A stretch of DNA of 64,000 bases, taken from the NCBI GenBank assembly GCA_036405415.1, contig DASWXP010000002.1:340803-404802 (forward strand), in the 5' to 3' direction. Origin of the DNA: Minisyncoccota bacterium. Lineage in GTDB: Bacteria > Patescibacteriota > Minisyncoccia > Phycocordibacterales > Phycocordibacteraceae. Position 1 is the stretch's first letter. Each line of letters begins with the position of its first letter. A program made the position numbers and the translations under genes. Below are positions 41,894 through 64,000 of this stretch, piece after piece. The notes beneath the pieces are model-generated. The model made no database searches, was not told where the DNA came from, and was given only the letters and a program-made list of their open reading frames with translations.

Positions 41894-41970
41894 CCACCCT
41901 TAGCTCAGTTGGTTAGAGCGCGGAGCTTATACCTCCGTGGTCCTTGGTTCGAGTCCAAGAGGGTGGACCA
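41894..41970 (+). tRNA. tRNA with UAU anticodon (tRNA-Ile reading AUA), CCA encoded
   Basis: CCACCCT acceptor paired with AGGGTGG, D-arm GCTCAGTTGGTTAGAGC, anticodon stem CGGAG/CTCCG with loop CTTATAC (U33, A37), T-arm CTTGGTTCGAGTCCAAG, then ACCA. Confidence 0.65.
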
Positions 41971-44998: not shown

Positions 44999-45407
44999 GG
45001 GGGTGACCGGCTTTGACGGTCCTGTACCTTGAGAGACGTGCGACGCGGTGGAAGTGTGCTGACCACCTAAAAACGTACACAAAAATACTTGCAAAGAACA
45101 CTCTTGCAAGCGTGAAGTCTCCGTTCACCATGAACGACTTCGCGTTCGCTTACGTACGGACGGCTTAAGCCTCCTCGCCTAAGCGACGTTCGTACTTCCC
45201 CGTTCCTTCAGGGGGAAGTACGGGCGGAATCTTCTGAAGGATAGGTATCTGCGCTCTCCCAGGCGCAGACTGAAGCGACGGGATCAGGTAGAGGCGTTTT
45301 CGTTACCGTTCCTATTCCTCTACTGAATTGCTAACGGTAACTACGCGTCGTAGACTCGCTCTTGAGACGGGATTCGGACCGGAGTTCGACTCTCCGCACC
45401 TCCACAT
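44999..45407 (+). ncRNA. ssrA: tmRNA (transfer-messenger RNA)
   Basis: Lies directly downstream of smpB. The 5-prime end GGGGGUGACCGGCUUUGACGG resembles the tmRNA consensus. The 3-prime T-arm CGGAGTTCGACTCTCCG and acceptor CACCTCC pair with the 5-prime GGGGGTG, including the G3-U70 alanine identity pair. Followed by a strong terminator. A candidate tag reading frame ends at TAA 45166-45168. Confidence 0.7.
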
Positions 45408-55493: not shown

Positions 55494-56090
55494 TTATCGG
55501 CTGCCTGCCTGCGCAAGCGCTGCTACGGTCGCGCGAGCAATGGTGAGCTTGTTCTTGGTGCGCGTGAGGATCTTCGCGATCACGTTGGTCACGCCAGCGT
55601 GCTCGAGCACCTGACGCATAGCGGAACCGGCGACGATACCGCGGCCCGGGGACGGGATGATGGTAACGATCGAGGAAGAATTCTTCACGGTCACGTCGTG
55701 CGCAATGGAGTTGTCCGCGGTGCGGTTAACCGTTACGAGGTGCTTCTTCGCATCACGTACTGCCTTGTCGATAGCGAGTGCGGTATCAGCACCCTTTCCA
55801 AGACCAACACCGACACGACCCTTCTTGTCGCCGATGACAACTGTTACGGAGAAGGAGAAGCGGCGACCGCCGGCCATAACGCGGGCCACGCGGCGAACCT
55901 CAAGCGTTGCCTGCTCGAACTCAGAGCGCTCGCGCGGGGCACGAGGACCGCGGCCACGAGCGTCGCCGCCACGGCCACGCATGCCGCCACGACCGCGAGG
56001 AGCGCCACGACGATCGTCGCGGGCAGGAGCTGCAGCCTGTGCGCCTGCTGCCGGAGCGTTCGTATTCGTGTCGAGAGTGGTATCAGTCAT
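55494..56090 (-). CDS. rpsE: 30S ribosomal protein S5 with a Gly/Arg-rich N-terminal extension
   Basis: Start ATG 56090. S5 core VRRVARVMAGGRRFSFSVTVVIGDKKGRVGVGLGKG, preceded by an RGRGG-repeat tail. Confidence 0.85.
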   Translation of the reverse strand: MTDTTLDTNTNAPAAGAQAAAPARDDRRGAPRGRGGMRGRGGDARGRGPRAPRERSEFEQATLEVRRVARVMAGGRRFSFSVTVVIGDKKGRVGVGLGKGADTALAIDKAVRDAKKHLVTVNRTADNSIAHDVTVKNSSSIVTIIPSPGRGIVAGSAMRQVLEHAGVTNVIAKILTRTKNKLTIARATVAALAQAGSR

Positions 56091-56094
56091 GTGT

Positions 56095-56439
56095 TTAGAA
56101 AGTAAGCCCTGCCTCGCGAGCGGCGTCAGCGAGTCCCTTAACCTGTCCTGCGTAGGCGTACCCGCCGCGATCGAACACGACGCTCGAGATGCCTGCTGCC
56201 TTCGCCTTCTCGGCGATAGCCTTGCCGACACCTGCTGCCTGGGCGCTCTGCGCGCCGCCGATGGTCTTGCCGTGCGCTGCTGCTACGGTCTTCCCTGCTA
56301 CGTCGTCGATAAGCTGTGCGGACACGAACTTGTTCGACTTGTATACCGCAAGGCGAGGACGCGCTGCAGTGCCAGAGACCTTGGCGCGTACGCGGTTATG
56401 ACGGCGATCGCGAAGCTGCTTGTTAGTGAGAGTTGCCAT
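56095..56439 (-). CDS. rplR: 50S ribosomal protein L18
   Basis: 114 aa ([21 protein letters not shown]...). Confidence 0.85.
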
Positions 56440-56448
56440 ACGTAAATA

Positions 56449-56982
56449 CTAGACGGCCTTCTTGCCCTGCTTACGGCGGATAACCTCGTTGTCGTAGGCG
56501 ATGCCCTTTCCGAGGTACGGCTCGGGCGGCTTGATGCCACGGACCTCAGCCGCGAACTGGCCGACCTTCTGCTTGTCTGCACCCTCAACCGTGATGGTGA
56601 GCTTCTCAACCTTCACTTCGATACCCTCAGGAACGGCAAGGGATACCGGGTGCGAGAAGCCTACGTTGAGCACGAGCTCGCGGCCACGAAGCTCAACCTT
56701 GTATCCGACGCCCTTCATGATGAGGACCTTCTTGAACGGGGTCTCGACGCCAGAAATCATCGCGCGAGCGTGTGCGGCGTAGGTGCCGGTAAGCGCACGA
56801 GCGAGCTTGGAATCGTCGCTCGGCGCAACGACGACGCCCTCAGGGGTGATCGAAAGGGTTACGGCCGGATGGATCGGGCGCTCGAGGGCAGCGGAAGGAC
56901 CCTTCACCGAGAGGAGGCCGCCGTCAGTGGAGACAGTTACCTTGGAAGGGATTGCGATTGGCTTGCGTGCGAGGCGGGACAT
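56449..56982 (-). CDS. rplF: 50S ribosomal protein L6
   Basis: Start ATG 56982 (MSRLARKPIAIPSKVTV...); two L6 repeats. Confidence 0.85.
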   Translation of the reverse strand: MSRLARKPIAIPSKVTVSTDGGLLSVKGPSAALERPIHPAVTLSITPEGVVVAPSDDSKLARALTGTYAAHARAMISGVETPFKKVLIMKGVGYKVELRGRELVLNVGFSHPVSLAVPEGIEVKVEKLTITVEGADKQKVGQFAAEVRGIKPPEPYLGKGIAYDNEVIRRKQGKKAV

Positions 56983-56992
56983 AGTACGGGTA

Positions 56993-57382
56993 TTACCAGA
57001 TCTCAAAGAGGTTCTCGCCACCTACGCGCACCTTGCGCGCCTCAGCGTCCGTAAGGACGCCCTTCGGGGTCGAGATGAGGCGTGCACCGATGCCGTTCTT
57101 CACGCTGTGCGCCTCGGCTGCAGGGACGTAGAGACGACGGCCCGGCTTCGAGATACGCTTTACGCCCTTGATCTTGTGGCGGCCGCGCTCGTCGTACGCG
57201 AGGGTAACCTCGAACGAGTACGGGCTCTTTCCCTTCTCAACGTCTGCGACGTAGCCGAGAGCCTTAAGCTTGTGCGCGATCTCCTCGACGTGCTTTGAGA
57301 ACGGAACCGTGACCGTCGGCTTGTTAATAGCGCCGGCGTTCTTGAGACGGATGATGAAATCTCCTACGCGATCAGTAACCAT
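56993..57382 (-). CDS. rpsH: 30S ribosomal protein S8
   Basis: Start ATG 57382 (MVTDRVGDFIIRLKNA...ENLFEIW). Confidence 0.85.
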   Translation of the reverse strand: MVTDRVGDFIIRLKNAGAINKPTVTVPFSKHVEEIAHKLKALGYVADVEKGKSPYSFEVTLAYDERGRHKIKGVKRISKPGRRLYVPAAEAHSVKNGIGARLISTPKGVLTDAEARKVRVGGENLFEIW

Positions 57383-57392
57383 ATACGAAAAT

Positions 57393-57662
57393 CTACCAGG
57401 AAGCCTTCTTAACGCCCGGGATCTTGCCCTCGCGCGCGAGCTCGCGGAACGCGATGCGGGAGAGGCCAAAATCGCGCATGAATCCGCGCTGGCGGCCGGT
57501 GATGGCGCAGCGGTTCTTGATGCGGACCGGGCTTGAATTCTTCGGAAGCTTCTGGAGGCCCTCATAATCGCCAGCAGCCTTAAGCTCAGCACGCTTGGCA
57601 GCGTACTTGGCCGCAAGCTTAATGCGGCGCTCGTTCTTTGCGATTGATGAGGTCTTGGCCAT
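57393..57662 (-). CDS. rpsN: 30S ribosomal protein S14 (long, non-zinc type)
   Basis: 89 aa ending ...[18 protein letters not shown]. Confidence 0.85.
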
Positions 57663-57733
57663 AAGAAAAATAAGCTCCGGGGAGCCGTGGAAGTAATCTA
57701 TCAGTCAGGAAGTAGGCTGTCAAATCAATGAAG

Positions 57734-57790
57734 GCTCCTTTCTTAGGAGCTGAGATACAACTCGGGGGCCCGCAACCAAATGCGGGCCCC
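57734..57790. terminator. two hairpins (gctcct-ttctt-aggagc and ggggcccgca-accaaa-tgcgggcccc) between the inserted ORF and rpsN
   Basis: A perfect 10-bp GC stem at 57765-57790 and a 6-bp stem at 57734-57750, 3-prime of ORF 57801..58130 on the minus strand. Confidence 0.45.
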
Positions 57791-57800
57791 AGGGCAGTAT

Positions 57801-58130
57801 CTATTTCCAGCTGACGAGCATTCTAAGGCGTCGCGGGTTCTCGATCGGCACGTCCGGTTGTACGAAATACACCGTTAAATCGCCCAGTATCTCCGCTATG
57901 GCCCGTTGAGCCATTCTGTCCTCTGCTAGGAACGGAGTAACGATTTCTACCTTAAAAGCACGGCTTCCAGCAGCCTCCATGAGGATCGGCTGCCAATACA
58001 TTTCGCACTCGTAGTAAATGCGCTTGTAGAGCCGACTCATCTTGAGGGAACGCTCGACTGCCCTCCTCTTGTGTCCAGCTTTCTGTACTTGGCGACCGTG
58101 GGCGCCGAGAGGTAATCTTAGATCTCGCAT
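57801..58130 (-). CDS. hypothetical protein inserted between rplE and rpsN (lower-GC island)
   Basis: Start at ATG 58130, preceded by a perfect AGGAGG Shine-Dalgarno sequence; 109 aa with a basic N-terminus and an acidic C-terminus. The TTG at 58199 used by the ORF track overlaps the upstream terminator stem. Local GC is about 52%. Confidence 0.45.
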   Translation of the reverse strand: MRDLRLPLGAHGRQVQKAGHKRRAVERSLKMSRLYKRIYYECEMYWQPILMEAAGSRAFKVEIVTPFLAEDRMAQRAIAEILGDLTVYFVQPDVPIENPRRLRMLVSWK

Positions 58131-58197
58131 CGGCACCTCCTTCTGAGAATCCAGATTGGGTATACCACTGACACATCTAAGTGTCGATATTAAATGC

Positions 58198-58222
58198 AAA
58201 AGACCCGCATCGCGGGTCTTTT
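58198..58222 (-). terminator. intrinsic terminator aaaagacccgc-atc-gcgggtctttt after rplE
   Basis: Perfect 11-bp stem directly 3-prime of the rplE stop (58239), inside the ribosomal-protein operon. Confidence 0.65.
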
Positions 58223-58238
58223 GCTTAGAACGTAAATA

Positions 58239-58772
58239 CTAGTCCTTCTTGAACGGAATGCCGAGGTGGCGGAAGAACGCATCTGCCTCCTCCTTGGTCT
58301 TCGCGGTGGTCACGAGGGTGATCGCAAGGCCGAATACGTCCTTGAGGTCCTCGTCTGCGGTCTCAGGAAAGATCGTGTGATCCTTGATTCCGATAGTGAG
58401 GTTGCCCATCTCATCGATCGCGGTCGCGTTAAGGCCGCGGAAGTCGCGGGTACGCGGAAGCGTGATGTGGATGAGCTTGTCGAGGAACTCGCGCATGCGC
58501 TCTCCGCGAAGCGTCACCTGGTAGCCGATTATCTCGCCCTGGCGCATCTTGAACTGCGCGATGGACTGCTTGGACGCGCGAGGCGCTGCCTTCTGGCCCG
58601 TGATGCGGGCGAGGCGGTCCTCAACGAGCGCCTTCTTGGTCTTGTCTGCCTTACCGACGCCGGAAGATACGACGATCTTAAGGAGACGCGGGGACGCGTT
58701 CACGTTGGTGTAGCCGAACTGCTCCTTGAGAGTGTCGAATGCACCGGCGAGCTTTTCTTTGGTCATCATCAT
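58239..58772 (-). CDS. rplE: 50S ribosomal protein L5
   Basis: 177 aa with conserved L5 blocks (NVMQVPRLEKIVVNMGVG-like: SPRLLKIVVSSGVG). Confidence 0.85.
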   Translation of the reverse strand: MMMTKEKLAGAFDTLKEQFGYTNVNASPRLLKIVVSSGVGKADKTKKALVEDRLARITGQKAAPRASKQSIAQFKMRQGEIIGYQVTLRGERMREFLDKLIHITLPRTRDFRGLNATAIDEMGNLTIGIKDHTIFPETADEDLKDVFGLAITLVTTAKTKEEADAFFRHLGIPFKKD

Positions 58773-58783
58773 ACTGAGTATCG

Positions 58784-59125
58784 TTAGCCGAGCTTGGTGC
58801 CGCTCTTAACGGTGACACGAACCTTCTTGCCGTCTACGGTCTCGCGCTTTACGCGGGTTCCCTTCTTCTCCTTGGGATCCTGGAGCATGACGTTTGAGAT
58901 GGAGATAGCGCGTGGCTTCTCGACGATGCGGCCGGTCTGGCCAGCGCGTCCGCGGTTGTGGCGCTTTACGAGCGCGACACCCTCAACCACTACCTTCGCG
59001 TCCTCGCGAAGCACCATCTCGACCTTGCCGGTCTTGCCCTTATCCTTTCCAGAAATAACGACAACGGTGTCGCCCTTCTTGATCTTGAACTTTGCGGTCT
59101 GGAGACCCTTAGATGCCTTGGACAT
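58784..59125 (-). CDS. rplX: 50S ribosomal protein L24
   Basis: KOW motif KIKKGDTVVVISGKDKGKTGKV. Confidence 0.85.
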   Translation of the reverse strand: MSKASKGLQTAKFKIKKGDTVVVISGKDKGKTGKVEMVLREDAKVVVEGVALVKRHNRGRAGQTGRIVEKPRAISISNVMLQDPKEKKGTRVKRETVDGKKVRVTVKSGTKLG

Positions 59126-59136
59126 AATCGTATGCG

Positions 59137-59514
59137 TTAGACGACCTCAGGGGCGATGCTTGCAATGTTCTGCCAGCCGCGATCAACGAGATCGCGCGGC
59201 ACCGGACCGAAGACACGGTTCCCCTTCGGACCCATCTCCTTACCCTGCTTCTCGATGAGGACAACGGCGTTGTCATCGAAGCGGACGTAAATGCCTGATG
59301 CGCGGCGGAACGCCTTCTTCTGGCGGACGACGACGGCCTTGTAGATGTCCTTCTTCTTTACGGGCTTCCTCGGCTCTGCGGTCTGGATCGATACGACCAC
59401 GACGTCGCCGATCTCCGCGTAGCGGCGCTTTGAACCGCCGAGCACCTTGAAGACGCGGGCTACCTTGCCTCCTGAGTTATCTGCGACGGTGACGATTGTC
59501 TGTGGCTGTACCAT
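59137..59514 (-). CDS. rplN: 50S ribosomal protein L14
   Basis: MVQPQTIVTVADNSGGK...LAPEVV-type C-terminus; 125 aa. Confidence 0.9.
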   Translation of the reverse strand: MVQPQTIVTVADNSGGKVARVFKVLGGSKRRYAEIGDVVVVSIQTAEPRKPVKKKDIYKAVVVRQKKAFRRASGIYVRFDDNAVVLIEKQGKEMGPKGNRVFGPVPRDLVDRGWQNIASIAPEVV

Positions 59515-59525
59515 AACTAAAAGTA

Positions 59526-59765
59526 TTACTTAGCGATCTTGAAGGTCTTCAGCTTCGAGACCGGCGCGCAGGCGACGATGGTTACCTGATCCCCCACCTT
59601 TACGGTGTTGCCCTCGTCATGCACGAGGAACTTCTTGGTGCGGGTCTGGTACTTCTTGTACTTTGCGTGCTTCACGTAGCGGGAGACCGCGACGGTAGCC
59701 GTGTCCTTCATCGCCGTCTTTACGACGGTTCCCTGGAACGACTGAGGCTTGGTGGTGTTTTCCAT
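59526..59765 (-). CDS. rpsQ: 30S ribosomal protein S17
   Basis: 79 aa (GTVVKTAMKDTATVAV...KTFKI). Confidence 0.85.
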   Translation of the reverse strand: MENTTKPQSFQGTVVKTAMKDTATVAVSRYVKHAKYKKYQTRTKKFLVHDEGNTVKVGDQVTIVACAPVSKLKTFKIAK

Positions 59766-59773
59766 AGTAAATG

Positions 59774-59971
59774 TTATGCAGCCTTCTCTTTCGCGGTCTT
59801 CTCAGTAAGGAGGCGTGCGATATCCTTACGAACCTTCTTGCGTGCGGACGGATCCTTCGCGCGACCACCGGTCGCCTCGAAGCGGAGCGTGCGGAGCTCC
59901 TCGCGCTTCTCGACGAGAAGCTTTGCGATGTCCTCAGCACTCGTATCCTTGAATGAAGTCTTCTTTGCCAT
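59774..59971 (-). CDS. rpmC: 50S ribosomal protein L29
   Basis: 65 aa helical protein (ELRTLRFEATGG). Confidence 0.8.
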   Translation of the reverse strand: MAKKTSFKDTSAEDIAKLLVEKREELRTLRFEATGGRAKDPSARKKVRKDIARLLTEKTAKEKAA

Positions 59972-59977
59972 ACCAGG

Positions 59978-60397
59978 TTATCGGGTGATCACGGTCGTCT
60001 TAAGCGGAAGCTTCGCGCCAGCACGGCGAAGTGCATCGCGTGCCTTAGCATCCTCAACACCGTCGAGCTCGAAGAGGATACGCCCTGGACGTACCTCGAA
60101 CACGAAGTGCTTCGGATCTCCCTTACCCTTACCCATACCCACCTCAGCCGGCTTGTTCGTGATCGGACGGTCCGGGAAGATGCGGATCCAGAGCTTGCCG
60201 CCCTTACCGGTTACGCGGGTAAGCACCTTACGAGCTGCCTCGATCTGATTCGAAGTGATGCGGGACGGGGTGGTCGCGCGAAGGCCGTAGGAGCCAAAGG
60301 ACACGGTGATGCCGCGGGTATCGGGACGCGCGAGCTTCTCCGGGGACTTGCGTCCGGTCTGCCACTTGCGGTGCTTTACTTTCTTAGGAAAAAGCAT
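59978..60397 (-). CDS. rplP: 50S ribosomal protein L16
   Basis: MLFPKKVKHRKWQTGR...; 139 aa. Confidence 0.9.
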   Translation of the reverse strand: MLFPKKVKHRKWQTGRKSPEKLARPDTRGITVSFGSYGLRATTPSRITSNQIEAARKVLTRVTGKGGKLWIRIFPDRPITNKPAEVGMGKGKGDPKHFVFEVRPGRILFELDGVEDAKARDALRRAGAKLPLKTTVITR

Positions 60398-60408
60398 AGG
60401 TCGAAGTA

Positions 60409-61119
60409 TTAGCGGCGCGGGCCGTTAGTGCGCTCCTGTGCCGGGCGTGCGCTCTGCTCCTGAGTAAAGGTCTCACCGAGGTATACCCATACCTTGATGC
60501 CGATGACGCCGTACGGAAGGAGTGCCTCCGTGTGTGCGTAATCGATGTTCGCGCGGAAGGTCTGAAGCGGGATACGACCACGCTTGATCTGCTCGGTGCG
60601 GCTCATGTCTGCGCCACCAAGGCGACCGGACACCACGATACGGACACCCACAACCTCGCGGACTGCCATGACCTTCTCAACCGTCTGCTTGAGGACGCGG
60701 CGGAACGGCATGCGCTTCTCAAGGCCCTCAGCCACCATGTAGCCGATAACCTGAGCGCTGGTCTCCGGCTGGCGGATCTCCATGATGTCGAGCTTCACCT
60801 GAGGCTTCGCTGCACCCGTGGTCTTTGCATGCACGAGCTTGGTTACCTCGGCGCGGAGCTTGGTTGCGTTCTCGCCAGAGCGGCCGATAACCATACCTGG
60901 GCGTGCGGTGTGGAGGATGACGCGAACCTCGTTTGCGCCGCGCTCGATCTCGATGTCAGAGATGTGCATCTGCTTGCCGCGCTTCTTGAAGAAGGCACGG
61001 ACAGCCGCATCCGCCGCAATGTTCTCGCGGTAGGACTTCTTATCACCAGCGAACCAGCGGCTCTTCCAGTCACGGATGATGCCGAGGCGGTGTGCGTACG
61101 GATGGACAGTGTGAGTCAT
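60409..61119 (-). CDS. rpsC: 30S ribosomal protein S3
   Basis: KH domain and the C-terminal S3 domain; MTHTVHPYAHRLGIIRDWKSRWFA. Confidence 0.9.
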   Translation of the reverse strand: MTHTVHPYAHRLGIIRDWKSRWFAGDKKSYRENIAADAAVRAFFKKRGKQMHISDIEIERGANEVRVILHTARPGMVIGRSGENATKLRAEVTKLVHAKTTGAAKPQVKLDIMEIRQPETSAQVIGYMVAEGLEKRMPFRRVLKQTVEKVMAVREVVGVRIVVSGRLGGADMSRTEQIKRGRIPLQTFRANIDYAHTEALLPYGVIGIKVWVYLGETFTQEQSARPAQERTNGPRR

Positions 61120-61124
61120 GGTAA

Positions 61125-61517
61125 TTACTTGGAATCAGCGGAAAGGCGCACGACGATGCGGCTGCGGCGCTTGCGGATAGGCGCTGCACGGCCCATAGCG
61201 CGCGGCATGAAGCGCACGAGCATGCCCGCAGAGTCAACGCGGATATCCTCGACACGGAGGCTCTCTACGTTCTCGCCGCGAGCCTTCGCGTTAGCAACGG
61301 CAGACTGGATGAGCTTCTTAACCGGCTCAGCAGCGCGCTTTGAGAGGAAGGAGAGCTCGGCGATAGCCTCCTCTGCCTTCTTGCCCTTAACGAGGTCAGT
61401 AACGAGGCGCACCTTGCGAGGCGACTGGTTGTAGGTATCGATAGACGCACGGATGGCCTTCTTTGCCTCCTCCTTACGTGCCTTTGCTGGCTGCTTGTGG
61501 GTGCCGACGGATGCCAT
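61125..61517 (-). CDS. rplV: 50S ribosomal protein L22
   Basis: 130 aa with the conserved L22 hairpin region (FMPRAMGRAAPIRKRRSRI). Confidence 0.85.
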   Translation of the reverse strand: MASVGTHKQPAKARKEEAKKAIRASIDTYNQSPRKVRLVTDLVKGKKAEEAIAELSFLSKRAAEPVKKLIQSAVANAKARGENVESLRVEDIRVDSAGMLVRFMPRAMGRAAPIRKRRSRIVVRLSADSK

Positions 61518-61520
61518 ACG

Positions 61521-61868
61521 CTACTTCTTCTTAGCTGGAGCAGGCGCTGCCTTAGCGGCCTTTGCGGCTGCGATCTCGGCCTGCTTCTTCTTCTCCTCGA
61601 GCTGCTTCTGCATCTTACCGCCGTGACGTACGAACTTCTTGGTCGGCGAGAACTCGCCGAGGCGGTGGCCTACCATCTCCTCTGCTACGAGGACGTCTAC
61701 GTGCTGCTTGCCGTTATGTACGCCGAAAGTGAATCCGACGAACTCAGGCGGGATCTGGCTTGCGCGAGCCCACGTCTTAATCACGCCGGTCTCCGACGGC
61801 TTCTTGCCCTGAACCTTTTTCATAAGCTTCAGGTCAACGTATGGGCCTTTCTTGAGTGAGCGTGACAT
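61521..61868 (-). CDS. rpsS: 30S ribosomal protein S19 with Lys/Ala-rich C-terminal tail
   Basis: S19 core [19 protein letters not shown]...[18 protein letters not shown], followed by [25 protein letters not shown]. Confidence 0.85.
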
Positions 61869-61996
61869 GGGATAGACAATGGAAAGCCCGCCAAGCGGGA
61901 TAGATAGAATCTATAGGAAACGTGAATCTATGTCAAATTTAGGGCCTCCGTGCTAGGGTTCTGGCAGGTGTTCAATTCCTCGATGGGGCAGATTCG

Positions 61997-62452
61997 ATGC
62001 GCATATCACCGGTTATTGGAATCCAATTCTGGAATTCCTACCCAGGACGGGCTTCTTGGCAGCCTGGAGACCTAGATACGACCCGCCTTCGGTGCGGAGA
62101 CCCGTGCAAGGTGCTTATGCCGCTTTTAGAGCGGCTCGACAAGCTTGATAGGAGCGAGCAAATCGCTGAACGAAGGCTTTGGGGAGCCACCAACCGCCCT
62201 ATCCAGCTCTTCTGGAGTTGGCGCATGAGTCATCTCAGACGGTCAGGCGTAAAGACCCTAGCCAAGGCCAAAGCGCACATTCAGAAGCTTCTGGAAGGGA
62301 GACTGCCGGAAAGAAAAGGACGTGAAGTCTTCTTGATAGAGCGTGGCGAGGATGGATTTCTTCCTATGCACGAAAATGAGCGCAGGCACATCTCGCGCAA
62401 ACTCGCAGATTCAGTCCGGACTGTGCTATTCCTGGCGAGCCCTTCCACCTGA
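61997..62452 (+). CDS. hypothetical protein (possibly shorter, starting at ATG 62117)
   Basis: Plus-strand ORF in the insertion between rpsS and rplB, followed by its own terminator. Trp/Arg-rich N-terminus, so the coding assignment is tentative. Confidence 0.3.
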   Translation: MRISPVIGIQFWNSYPGRASWQPGDLDTTRLRCGDPCKVLMPLLERLDKLDRSEQIAERRLWGATNRPIQLFWSWRMSHLRRSGVKTLAKAKAHIQKLLEGRLPERKGREVFLIERGEDGFLPMHENERRHISRKLADSVRTVLFLASPST

Positions 62453-62466
62453 TACGCTTTCCGACC

Positions 62467-62490
62467 GGGTCCTTGCTTCAGCAAGGACCC
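62467..62490 (+). terminator. intrinsic terminator gggtccttgc-ttca-gcaaggaccc followed by GTTTCTTT
   Basis: Perfect 10-bp stem plus a T-tract after ORF 61997..62452. Confidence 0.6.
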
Positions 62491-62516
62491 GTTTCTTTAG
62501 GCTATACTTTCCACAT

Positions 62517-63332
62517 ATGATCGACCTCACTTCCCCGTCTGCTAGGCGTGCAGAACTCCTCGGTGCCGCAGCCCTCATAGCCCTCGTTCTCGGCTTCACG
62601 CTCTGGTATATGGCCACGCACCAGGCTCCAGAGCCGTATTCCCCGACTCCTGAGACCGAAGAGGTGGCTGAGTCGCTTCCGCCAGAGACCTACGAAGAGC
62701 ACGGCCAGTACTTCGATATAGAGGCCACCTACCCTGCCGAGACCCCGCTCAAGGCAACCGCAGGCGAAGACGCAGACGCCGCGGCCGTAGCGCTCATGGA
62801 GGATTTCGTAGATGAGACTATCGCGGACTTCAAGCGCCAGGGCAATTTCGACAACCTCACCCCTGAGGACGTGCAGATCATGGGTCTCTCAGACACCCGC
62901 AAAGAGTCCCTTACCCTTCTTTACGAGGAGCGCATGGGAGACGACACTATTACCTACGTATTCACGCTCCACGTTGATACCCTCGGCGCGCACCCGAACA
63001 CCTTCTACCGCTCCTTCACCTTCGATCGGATCTCAGGCAAGGAAATTGCTATACAGAACCTATTCGTATCAGGTTCCGGATACCTTACCCGACTTTCCGC
63101 AATTGCTGAGTTTGAGCTTTCGAAGCTCCTCGGCGAGTTCGCAGATCTCGACTACATCCGCCAGGGCGTGGCCGCAGAGGCAATAAACTTCCAGAGCTAC
63201 GCTATAGAAGGCCAGGATCTCATCCTCATCTTCCCGCCGTATCAGGTAGCGCCCTACGCCGCAGGCACGCAGACCGTCGCGATCCCGCTTGCGCAGCTCG
63301 CAGAGATTCTGAAGCCTGAGTATCGTCCCTAG
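62517..63332 (+). CDS. DUF3298/DUF4163-type (RsiV/PdaC-like) membrane-anchored protein
   Basis: Start ATG 62517 (MIDLTSPSARRAELLGAAALIALVLGFTLWY, a TM anchor). The C-terminal block IFPPYQVAPYAAGTQTVAIP is the hallmark of DUF3298 domains. Confidence 0.65.
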   Translation: MIDLTSPSARRAELLGAAALIALVLGFTLWYMATHQAPEPYSPTPETEEVAESLPPETYEEHGQYFDIEATYPAETPLKATAGEDADAAAVALMEDFVDETIADFKRQGNFDNLTPEDVQIMGLSDTRKESLTLLYEERMGDDTITYVFTLHVDTLGAHPNTFYRSFTFDRISGKEIAIQNLFVSGSGYLTRLSAIAEFELSKLLGEFADLDYIRQGVAAEAINFQSYAIEGQDLILIFPPYQVAPYAAGTQTVAIPLAQLAEILKPEYRP

Positions 63333-63401
63333 TGCACGCGACATAAGGGTTCGTTTCTGCTATAAACGACATCAGTCTGTACACAACAACCGGGGGCAAG
63401 T

Positions 63402-63713
63402 ATGAATCAATGCACGCCGTGCAAACGAGTCATTCAGGCGATCGCAAAATCGCTTGCGCAACTCGATGCAGCGACAGGGTCTGACCCTACGAAGGCCATA
63501 CAATATGTTCGCGTGAACTCGAAATTCGAAACTCTTCCTCGGAAGGTATTCACGAATATTTTTATCGAGCCTATACAGATCTCTGACATGGTCCGTGAAG
63601 TGATCGTCAGGATCACGAGAATGCTTGGAGACTTCATGCAGGACATCATCGTGCTTACCGTGCGTCTCGAATGGCATGACGGCCGCTGGAGGCGTATCGG
63701 TCCTTGCTATTGA
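63402..63713 (+). CDS. hypothetical protein (lower-GC)
   Basis: GGGGG Shine-Dalgarno 8 nt upstream of the ATG; 103 aa; followed by a terminator hairpin at 63732-63754. An overlapping antisense ORF 63372..63677 is considered less likely. Confidence 0.4.
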   Translation: MNQCTPCKRVIQAIAKSLAQLDAATGSDPTKAIQYVRVNSKFETLPRKVFTNIFIEPIQISDMVREVIVRITRMLGDFMQDIIVLTVRLEWHDGRWRRIGPCY

Positions 63714-63773
63714 ACTGTACGCCCGGTTCCGAGGGGTCCTAGAACGGGACCCCTTCGCTTATATAAAGAAAAA

Positions 63774-63791
63774 GCCCCGCTTCCGCGGGGC
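63774..63791 (-). terminator. intrinsic terminator gccccgc-ttcc-gcggggc with a T-run (on the minus strand) after rplB
   Basis: GC-rich 7-bp stem 7 nt after the rplB stop codon (63798-63800). A run of A on the plus strand at 63765-73 gives a U-tract on the rplB transcript. Confidence 0.6.
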
Positions 63792-63797
63792 CTTCTC

Positions 63798-64000
63798 TTA
63801 TCGCTTCTTTCCGACCTTGCGGCGGCTAACGATAAATTTGTTCGAGTACTTCTTCGGGGTACGGGTCTTCTGGCCCTTGCCGGTTGGCTTACCCCACATG
63901 CTCTTGGCACGGCGGAGACCGCGGCCCTGAACGCCCTCACCGCCTCCGTGCGGATGGTCTACCGGGTTCATGGCAGTACCGCGGACGGTTGGGCGGATGC
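63798..64000 (-). CDS. rplB: 50S ribosomal protein L2 (C-terminal end; runs off the window)
   Basis: The minus-strand translation ends ...[55 protein letters not shown], the conserved L2 C-terminus. Confidence 0.8.

Follow-up and report, generated by a model that had tools for sequence, protein, structure and literature searches.

A probable standing boundary between two ribosomal-protein transcription units at the rplB-rpsS junction of a high-GC Patescibacteria genome

We analysed the interval between the ribosomal-protein genes rplB and rpsS in a Minisyncoccota bacterium, located at positions 61869-63797 of a stretch of 64,000 nucleotides from contig DASWXP010000002.1 (the whole stretch is referred to as the window). 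This gap is very probably not the product of a recent insertion but a standing breakpoint between two ribosomal-protein transcription units in Paceibacteria, one comprising rplC-rplD-rplW-rplB and the other running from rpsS to rplE. The upstream unit would stop at a bidirectional intrinsic terminator directly after rplB, and the downstream unit would start about 40 nt before rpsS at a conserved sigma-70-type promoter, with a transcript that opens with a GC hairpin and a U-rich leader. Because the two units would be transcriptionally insulated from one another, the slot between them may tolerate other genes as well as gene turnover. A gene for a DUF3298 protein appears to be the vertically inherited resident of this slot in a high-GC subclade, presumably transcribed away from rpsS via the divergent half of a bidirectional promoter module; in the window it has a rare partner upstream (orf151) and a small gene downstream (orf103) as companions.

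The adjacency of rplB and rpsS is among the most conserved in prokaryotes. In Escherichia coli the S10 operon (rpsJ-rplC-rplD-rplW-rplB-rpsS-rplV-rpsC-rplP-rpmC-rpsQ) is served by one promoter and controlled through its leader by L4. An earlier note on this DNA, made from the sequence alone, had described the junction as interrupted by three genes on the opposite strand. This description holds: delimited with the list of open reading frames (ORFs) and Pfam, the gap has the same coordinates as in that note and measures 1,929 bp, and all three ORFs are genuine genes, lying on the plus strand opposite to the minus-strand ribosomal cluster. The S10 operon is thus not contiguous here, as rpsS is separated from rplB by these three genes, a terminator and a promoter. 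Further on (56000-61868, from the ORF list) the order rpsS-rplV-rpsC-rplP-rpmC-rpsQ followed by the spc genes is retained, and these junctions are tight in relatives. The segment of rplB contained in the window has approximately 80% nucleotide identity with rplB of relatives. The following features were identified:

61521-61868, minus strand: rpsS (uS19), putative head of the downstream unit (Pfam Ribosomal_S19, E=3.6e-32, residues 3-82 of 115)
61887..61899, minus strand: 5'-proximal leader hairpin CCCGC-UUG-GCGGG, nine nt past the -10 element (conservation in relatives)
61936..61908, minus strand: predicted sigma-70-type promoter of the rpsS-rplE unit, TTGACA-17-TAGATT (10/12 consensus match)
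61951-61959, plus strand: extended -10 element (TGcTAGGGT) of a putative divergent promoter (conservation)
61949-62499, unstranded: presence/absence segment with orf151 and its terminator (blastn)
61997-62452, plus strand: orf151, 151 aa, soluble, rare and fast-evolving family with an N-terminal FWNSYPG motif (HMMER homologues)
62466-62499, plus strand: intrinsic terminator after orf151, 11-bp stem followed by TTTCTTT (hairpin 62466-62491, folding energy dG -21.8, z-score -5.0)
62517-63332, plus strand: DUF3298 gene, 271 aa, membrane-anchored, RsiV/MPT64-like (Pfam DUF3298, homologue lengths, AlphaFold2 (AF2), Foldseek)
63402-63713, plus strand: orf103, 103 aa, narrow distribution (dN/dS, homologues)
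63730-63757, plus strand: second hairpin 3' of orf103, maybe an extra terminator (fold of 63714-63800)
63766-63799, unstranded: bidirectional intrinsic terminator, A-tract, GC stem and T-tract in a perfect palindrome (dG -26.7 kcal/mol, z -5.2, 0/200 shuffles as good)
63798-64000, minus strand: rplB (uL2), 3' end; the gene leaves the window (Pfam Ribosomal_L2_C, E=2.3e-10)

Evidence for a standing breakpoint comes from the relatives. We compared the locus with 80 species-representative loci centred on S19 and with 17 loci from metagenome look-ups. The host has a GC content of about 59% and is a member of the Paceibacteria/Parcubacteria (Patescibacteria), within a high-GC, Kaiserbacteria-like subclade; its nearest S19 loci all stem from metagenome-assembled genomes labelled Paceibacterota, Kaiserbacteria, Nomurabacteria and similar. 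The distances between neighbouring ribosomal-protein genes among these relatives are:

rplB-rpsS: median 1,072 bp; above 150 bp in 45/54 and above 500 bp in 41/54; maximum 5,576 bp
rplE-rpsN: median 522 bp; above 150 bp in 28/52 and above 500 bp in 27/52; maximum 2,012 bp
rpsJ-rplC: median 177 bp; above 150 bp in 22/39 and above 500 bp in 13/39; maximum 2,227 bp
Other 14 junctions measured: medians below 45 bp; above 150 bp in 0-3 loci each; maximum 240 bp, except for one rplX-rplE outlier of 2,239 bp

Given these junction statistics, together with those on promoters, hairpins and terminators presented below, we conclude that the split between the end of rplB and the start of rpsS is a property of the lineage and not of this genome. 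The earlier note had itself named a lineage-wide occurrence of the arrangement as something that would speak against its own view, and for the split such an occurrence is essentially what the 45/54 relatives display. In comparison to the E. coli S10 operon, the genes, their relative order and their orientation are the same, and the S10-type genes form one neighbourhood with the spc-type genes. Unlike in E. coli, the cluster is cut at rplB-rpsS here and in most relatives, also at rplE-rpsN and often at rpsJ-rplC, and we set these cuts apart from the E. coli arrangement by the terminator, internal promoter and non-ribosomal genes found with each; conversely, the unit boundary of E. coli between rpsQ and rplN is tight here.

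The content of the gap differs between relatives while its position does not. Within the high-GC subclade, 26 loci have a DUF3298 gene in the gap, oriented opposite to the ribosomal genes, at identities of 33-94%. When 65 gap ORFs of relatives were scanned, 14 proved to be DUF3298 and nine prokaryotic diacylglycerol kinase, the remainder including OMP decarboxylase, phosphoribosyltransferases, helicases, NUDIX, HIT and others. The surroundings of DUF3298 vary as well: L001 carries an unrelated 170-aa gene in the position of orf151, L084-87 have ribosomal-strand genes of 212 aa and 224 aa on either side of DUF3298, and L088 and L089 contain orf151 homologues plus other genes. In the close relative L081 the DUF3298 protein is 94% identical and 33 bp stand in place of window positions 61949-62499. 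As a separate observation, the diacylglycerol kinase gene fills the gap in nine lower-GC Paceibacteria (L004, L016, L023, L025, L038, L044 and others), and this protein is, like DUF3298, a membrane protein resident in the gap.

The earlier note had supposed that the rpsS block would need a new promoter, and a well-matching candidate is indeed present at 61936..61908. We scored the motif TTGAC-N16-19-TANNNT within 117 nt upstream of each gene, and found it in front of rpsS in 62/84 distinct relatives and in front of rpsN in 18/23, against 0-1 occurrences per gene for ten further ribosomal-protein genes that were tested. The predicted transcript starts with a small hairpin and continues as a U-rich leader that does not contain a Shine-Dalgarno sequence. 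A hairpin (at least 4 bp, with at least three G/C bases in the 5' arm) that begins about 8 nt after the -10 element is present in 55/61 promoter-bearing relatives, where shuffled sequences give an expectation of 18.9. Its stem varies (CCCGC/GCGGG, CUCGCG/CGCGGG, GAGCUC/GAGCUU, GCUCU/AGAGC and others) and differs between subclades. No Rfam family matches the rpsS or rpsN leader, and we consider the combination of promoter, 5' hairpin and U-rich leader at the head of both units a candidate new leader motif across Paceibacteria. Most plausibly, the hairpin shields the mRNA at its 5' end or tunes initiation on a leader that has no Shine-Dalgarno sequence. Such a generic role is favoured over a binding site for a ribosomal protein (autoregulation), since the leaders of rpsS and rpsN share their design and not their stem sequence.

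The promoter is part of a region that has hardly changed. Over 61869-61948 the window and L081 agree at 100% of positions, compared with 82% for the complete alignment, most of which is coding, and a module of about 95 bp (61869-61960) with back-to-back promoter elements is almost invariant in relatives. On its distal side the element TGnTAGGGT is kept in 7/8 aligned relatives (L008 has TAGGTT), irrespective of the gene that follows, and may act as the extended -10 of a divergent promoter. The 128-bp region upstream of rpsS has a GC content of 0.49. A structured RNA in 61950-62100, which by eye had looked tmRNA- or T-loop-like, was discarded: ARAGORN reports nothing there and Rfam only a sub-threshold match to BjrC68, which in the scan of 57000-64000 stays below the gathering score and represents the orf151 terminator only.

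At the other end of the gap, the terminator that the earlier note had assigned to rplB is confirmed as a hairpin at 63766-63799. It is conserved in relatives, and a hairpin with a T-run lies within 80 nt after rplB in 28/55 of them. Based on its palindromic sequence, this element is predicted to be able to stop transcription from both sides, closing the minus-strand rplC-rplB unit as well as orf103, which converges on it from the plus strand. The additional statement that each of the three inserted genes has its own terminator was two-thirds right: terminators follow orf151 and orf103, and none was detected 3' of the DUF3298 gene. For this reason the hairpins at 63730-63799 probably serve DUF3298 and orf103 jointly.

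For the DUF3298 gene, the ORF from 62343 (329 aa) was ruled out in favour of the ATG at 62517, given that 244 homologues cluster at lengths of 270-273 aa. The protein belongs to the DUF3298 superfamily (PF11738, E=6.9e-11, 43.4 bits against a gathering cut-off of 24.1). According to the AF2 model (pLDDT 92.4) it consists of approximately six N-terminal cytoplasmic residues, a transmembrane helix (residues 7-34) and a two-domain ectodomain, and about 215 columns of the predicted fold align with two-domain DUF3298 structures. Foldseek matches the model to 3cyg (E=1e-10, TM-score 0.77 on target), 4e72, 3s5t, RsiV (5jen_C, E=1.9e-8, 232 columns) and MPT64, and profile matches in the PDB are MPT64 (2hhi, E=3.3e-11), 3cyg, 3s5t and RsiV (E=6.4e-6). 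The label DUF3298/DUF4163 RsiV-like membrane protein in the earlier note is therefore supported as to DUF3298 and the RsiV-like fold, whereas DUF4163 is not detected by Pfam in the 271-aa protein. In GenBank the gap genes are named 'RsiV family protein' (HEY0948330.1, the DUF3298 protein of the window) and 'hypothetical protein'.

The protein has the ectodomain fold of RsiV but does not belong with the RsiV anti-sigma factors. In Bacillus and Clostridioides, RsiV (PDB 5jen) acts both as the anti-sigma factor of sigma-V and as a receptor for lysozyme; it shares with the protein of the window the single-pass topology and the extracytoplasmic fold of the DUF4163/DUF3298 type, as recognised by Pfam for DUF3298 and by Foldseek. 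In contrast to RsiV, the window protein lacks a cytoplasmic anti-sigma domain, given that only some six residues precede the helix in the AF2 model, and no N-terminal Pfam domain is found. Neither is there a sigma-factor gene nearby: Pfam and NCBIfam show no sigma-factor domain in rpsS, orf151, orf103 or rplB. The NCBIfam RsiV equivalog reaches 14.9 bits against a cut-off of 250 and covers residues 156-265 only, and the Rv3036c esterase model reaches 50 bits against a cut-off of 200. The best profile and fold matches are MPT64/Rv3036c and DUF3298 proteins from structural genomics (2hhi, 3cyg, 3s5t, 4e72), at identities of 15-19%. MPT64 is secreted and not anchored by an N-terminal transmembrane helix, and to our knowledge none of the proteins in this group has a defined general function. 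By analogy to RsiV, PdaC and MPT64, our best guess for the cassette, made with low confidence, would be a function outside the cytoplasm, either in the cell envelope or in binding of peptidoglycan or muramidase. An additional observation at the start of the gene is a TATACT element resembling a -10 (region 62500-62519), conserved also in L081, with its end 8 nt upstream of the ATG; given this short distance, the DUF3298 mRNA may be leaderless or nearly so.

Both orf151 and orf103 have a weak GC preference at third codon positions (GC3) and very few homologues, and for orf151 the absence of a Pfam match, of a hit in a word-indexed search and of a tblastn match in 80 relatives at first hinted at a spurious high-GC ORF. 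This was overturned by an exhaustive HMMER search, the only one to find its homologues, and by their genomic contexts. The matches are P0123 (45% identity, full length, E=4e-23), P0125 and P0126, and all three (27-45% identity) are encoded in the interval from rpsS to DUF3298, pointing away from rpsS and with DUF3298 as the next gene downstream. Given that such diverged homologues hold the same slot, orf151 is old and has been lost in L081 and not gained in the window; it is an old but dispensable occupant of the gap. Its AF2 model (pLDDT 81.6) has no significant fold neighbour in the PDB (best E=0.45, FemA). The 170-aa gene of L001 is not a diverged orf151 (hhalign probability 0.4%).

The protein of orf103 is 86% identical across all 103 aa in the JGI contigs L082/L083, and further homologues are P0121, P0122 and P0134. 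Compared to L082, dN/dS is 0.19 with differences of 5/8/20 over the three codon positions, which indicates that the gene is under purifying selection. The overlapping antisense frame, a 101-aa ORF, has a value of 1.35, so that the plus strand is favoured and this candidate was dropped. No Pfam or NCBIfam family matches orf103, and its PGAP annotation covers the C-terminal 66 aa only.

Several explanations other than a standing breakpoint have to be weighed, two of which would make the gap a peculiarity of this genome or its assembly. The earlier note saw a recent foreign insertion, that is, a horizontally acquired islet of lower GC between rplB and rpsS of this genome. Such an islet would fit the GC content of the gap (0.548, where equally long tiles have 0.591 +/- 0.023; 5.5th percentile), the absence of 61949-62499 from L081, and the weak GC3 and scarce homologues of orf151 and orf103. 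Nonetheless, the drop in GC is modest and is located in intergenic DNA and in the two small genes; the DUF3298 gene itself, to which the lower GC had also been ascribed, is typical with 0.58 (0.59 for the window). In 26 loci, with identities as low as 33%, the latter gene is found in this slot and in this orientation, orf151 homologues occupy the same slot at 27-45%, and among relatives it is orf151 that is patchy, not DUF3298. Hallmarks of mobile elements are absent from the region: Pfam detects no integrase, transposase or recombinase domain, ARAGORN detects no tRNA, and flanking repeats amount to short matches at chance level. Since the split moreover is the norm in the lineage, with the junction open beyond 150 bp in 45/54 relatives, the islet is largely refuted and we regard it as very improbable. 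A chimeric join of unrelated DNA between the operon halves might be suspected as well, as the genome was assembled from a metagenome and three Logan contigs (L095-L097) have an identical starting point, position 61918, which lies within the rpsS promoter. The coincidence points to branching of the assembly graph, perhaps because strains with different orf151 segments occur together. Yet four independent per-run Logan assemblies (SRR11449179, -181, -182 and -183) are 100% identical to the window; L094 (SRR11449182) covers 61107-64000 and crosses both junctions, and the three other runs are identical over 61918-64000. The same architecture is also recovered from many unrelated samples and assemblers. 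These identical assemblies exclude an artefact with near certainty and, taken together with the synteny, lead us to reject both misassembly and recent horizontal insertion.

It might also be argued that the position has a function, in that a DUF3298 cassette placed back-to-back with the rpsS promoter couples expression of an envelope protein to ribosome synthesis by way of a bidirectional control region common to both. This is compatible with a standing breakpoint, and would agree with the near invariance of the module at 61869-61960, including the divergent TGnTAGGGT whichever gene follows, and with the persistence of DUF3298 while both its flanks turn over. On the other hand, in other Paceibacteria the gap is empty or filled by unrelated genes (dgkA, pyrF, helicases and others), L084 has a same-strand gene between DUF3298 and the rpsS promoter, and retention of synteny can be passive, so that we consider such coupling rather unlikely. 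Similarly doubtful is a more far-reaching proposal, according to which the super-operon was re-partitioned into units headed by rpsS and rpsN, the leader is a new cis-regulatory (possibly autoregulatory) RNA that replaces feedback of the L4/S8 type, and the gaps are lineage-wide slots for gain and loss of genes, including a conserved orf151-DUF3298 envelope pair with expression tied to ribosome synthesis.

A number of observations count against the standing breakpoint or limit the weight of its evidence. The low GC percentile of the gap is one of them, and the lack of orf151 in one close relative (L081) shows that part of the content is evolutionarily labile. The leader hairpin of the window is weak (-7.5 kcal/mol, z -0.96) and by energy alone not significant, and the various stem types may stand for only a few independent substitution events. 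Relatives were chosen by similarity of S19, with flanks of at most 6 kb and an uneven sampling within the class; where rplB could not be detected within these 6 kb, as was the case in several loci, the distances are lower bounds. Finally, promoter, terminators and insulation are deduced from sequence and its conservation.

Integration hotspots resemble the locus in having conserved flanks (here rplB and rpsS) around a content that varies between related genomes, but differ from it in that no recombinase, tRNA or repeat is present here, DUF3298 is stably inherited and the slot lies inside a ribosomal-protein cluster. We found no description in the literature of the rplB-rpsS split, the internal promoters, the cassette or DUF3298 in Patescibacteria, although coverage was incomplete and this is absence of evidence only. 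The architecture is a lineage-specific, moderately surprising variant of a well-known gene cluster and no new kind of molecular system. Its relevance is in part practical: contiguous blocks of ribosomal-protein genes are a routine aid in the binning, placement and quality control of genomes from uncultured bacteria, and where a class of Patescibacteria breaks the cluster at two or three fixed points, caution is needed before such gaps are called misassemblies or recent insertions. In addition, the locus provides defined (predicted) promoter, leader and terminator sequences for organisms with hardly any known transcription signals, and draws attention to a few genes without annotation (orf151, orf103 and a 109-aa gene at rplE-rpsN) that keep their place in the midst of the most strongly expressed genes of these reduced genomes.

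The gap between rplE and rpsN (57663-58238) follows the same pattern as the gap at rpsS. At its beginning, rplE is followed by a strong terminator (58196-58224, dG -23.4), and rpsN is preceded by a promoter with hexamers identical to those of rpsS, a hairpin (GCUC-CCCG-GAGC) and a U-rich leader (57723..57663). Within this gap lies the 109-aa gene, on the ribosomal strand (58130-57801), with the Shine-Dalgarno sequence AAGGAGGTG and a possible promoter (TCGACA-17-TATACC); its protein matches no Pfam or NCBIfam family, and L088 encodes a homologue of 31% identity at the corresponding position. At the third break the picture is different, as a TTGAC-type promoter upstream of rplC was found in 1/44 only, unlike for rpsS and rpsN. 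The rpsJ-rplC junction of L084-86 holds three small unannotated genes.

Some minor observations concern rpsS and the remainder of the window. The uS19 protein (115 aa) ends in a Lys/Ala-rich C-terminal tail of about 33 residues past the Pfam domain (61521-61622), the length of which is kept in most relatives. Elsewhere in the window ARAGORN predicts a tmRNA at 44999-45405 and a tRNA-Ile at 41894-41970, the latter with the anticodon TAT, which is uncommon in bacteria.

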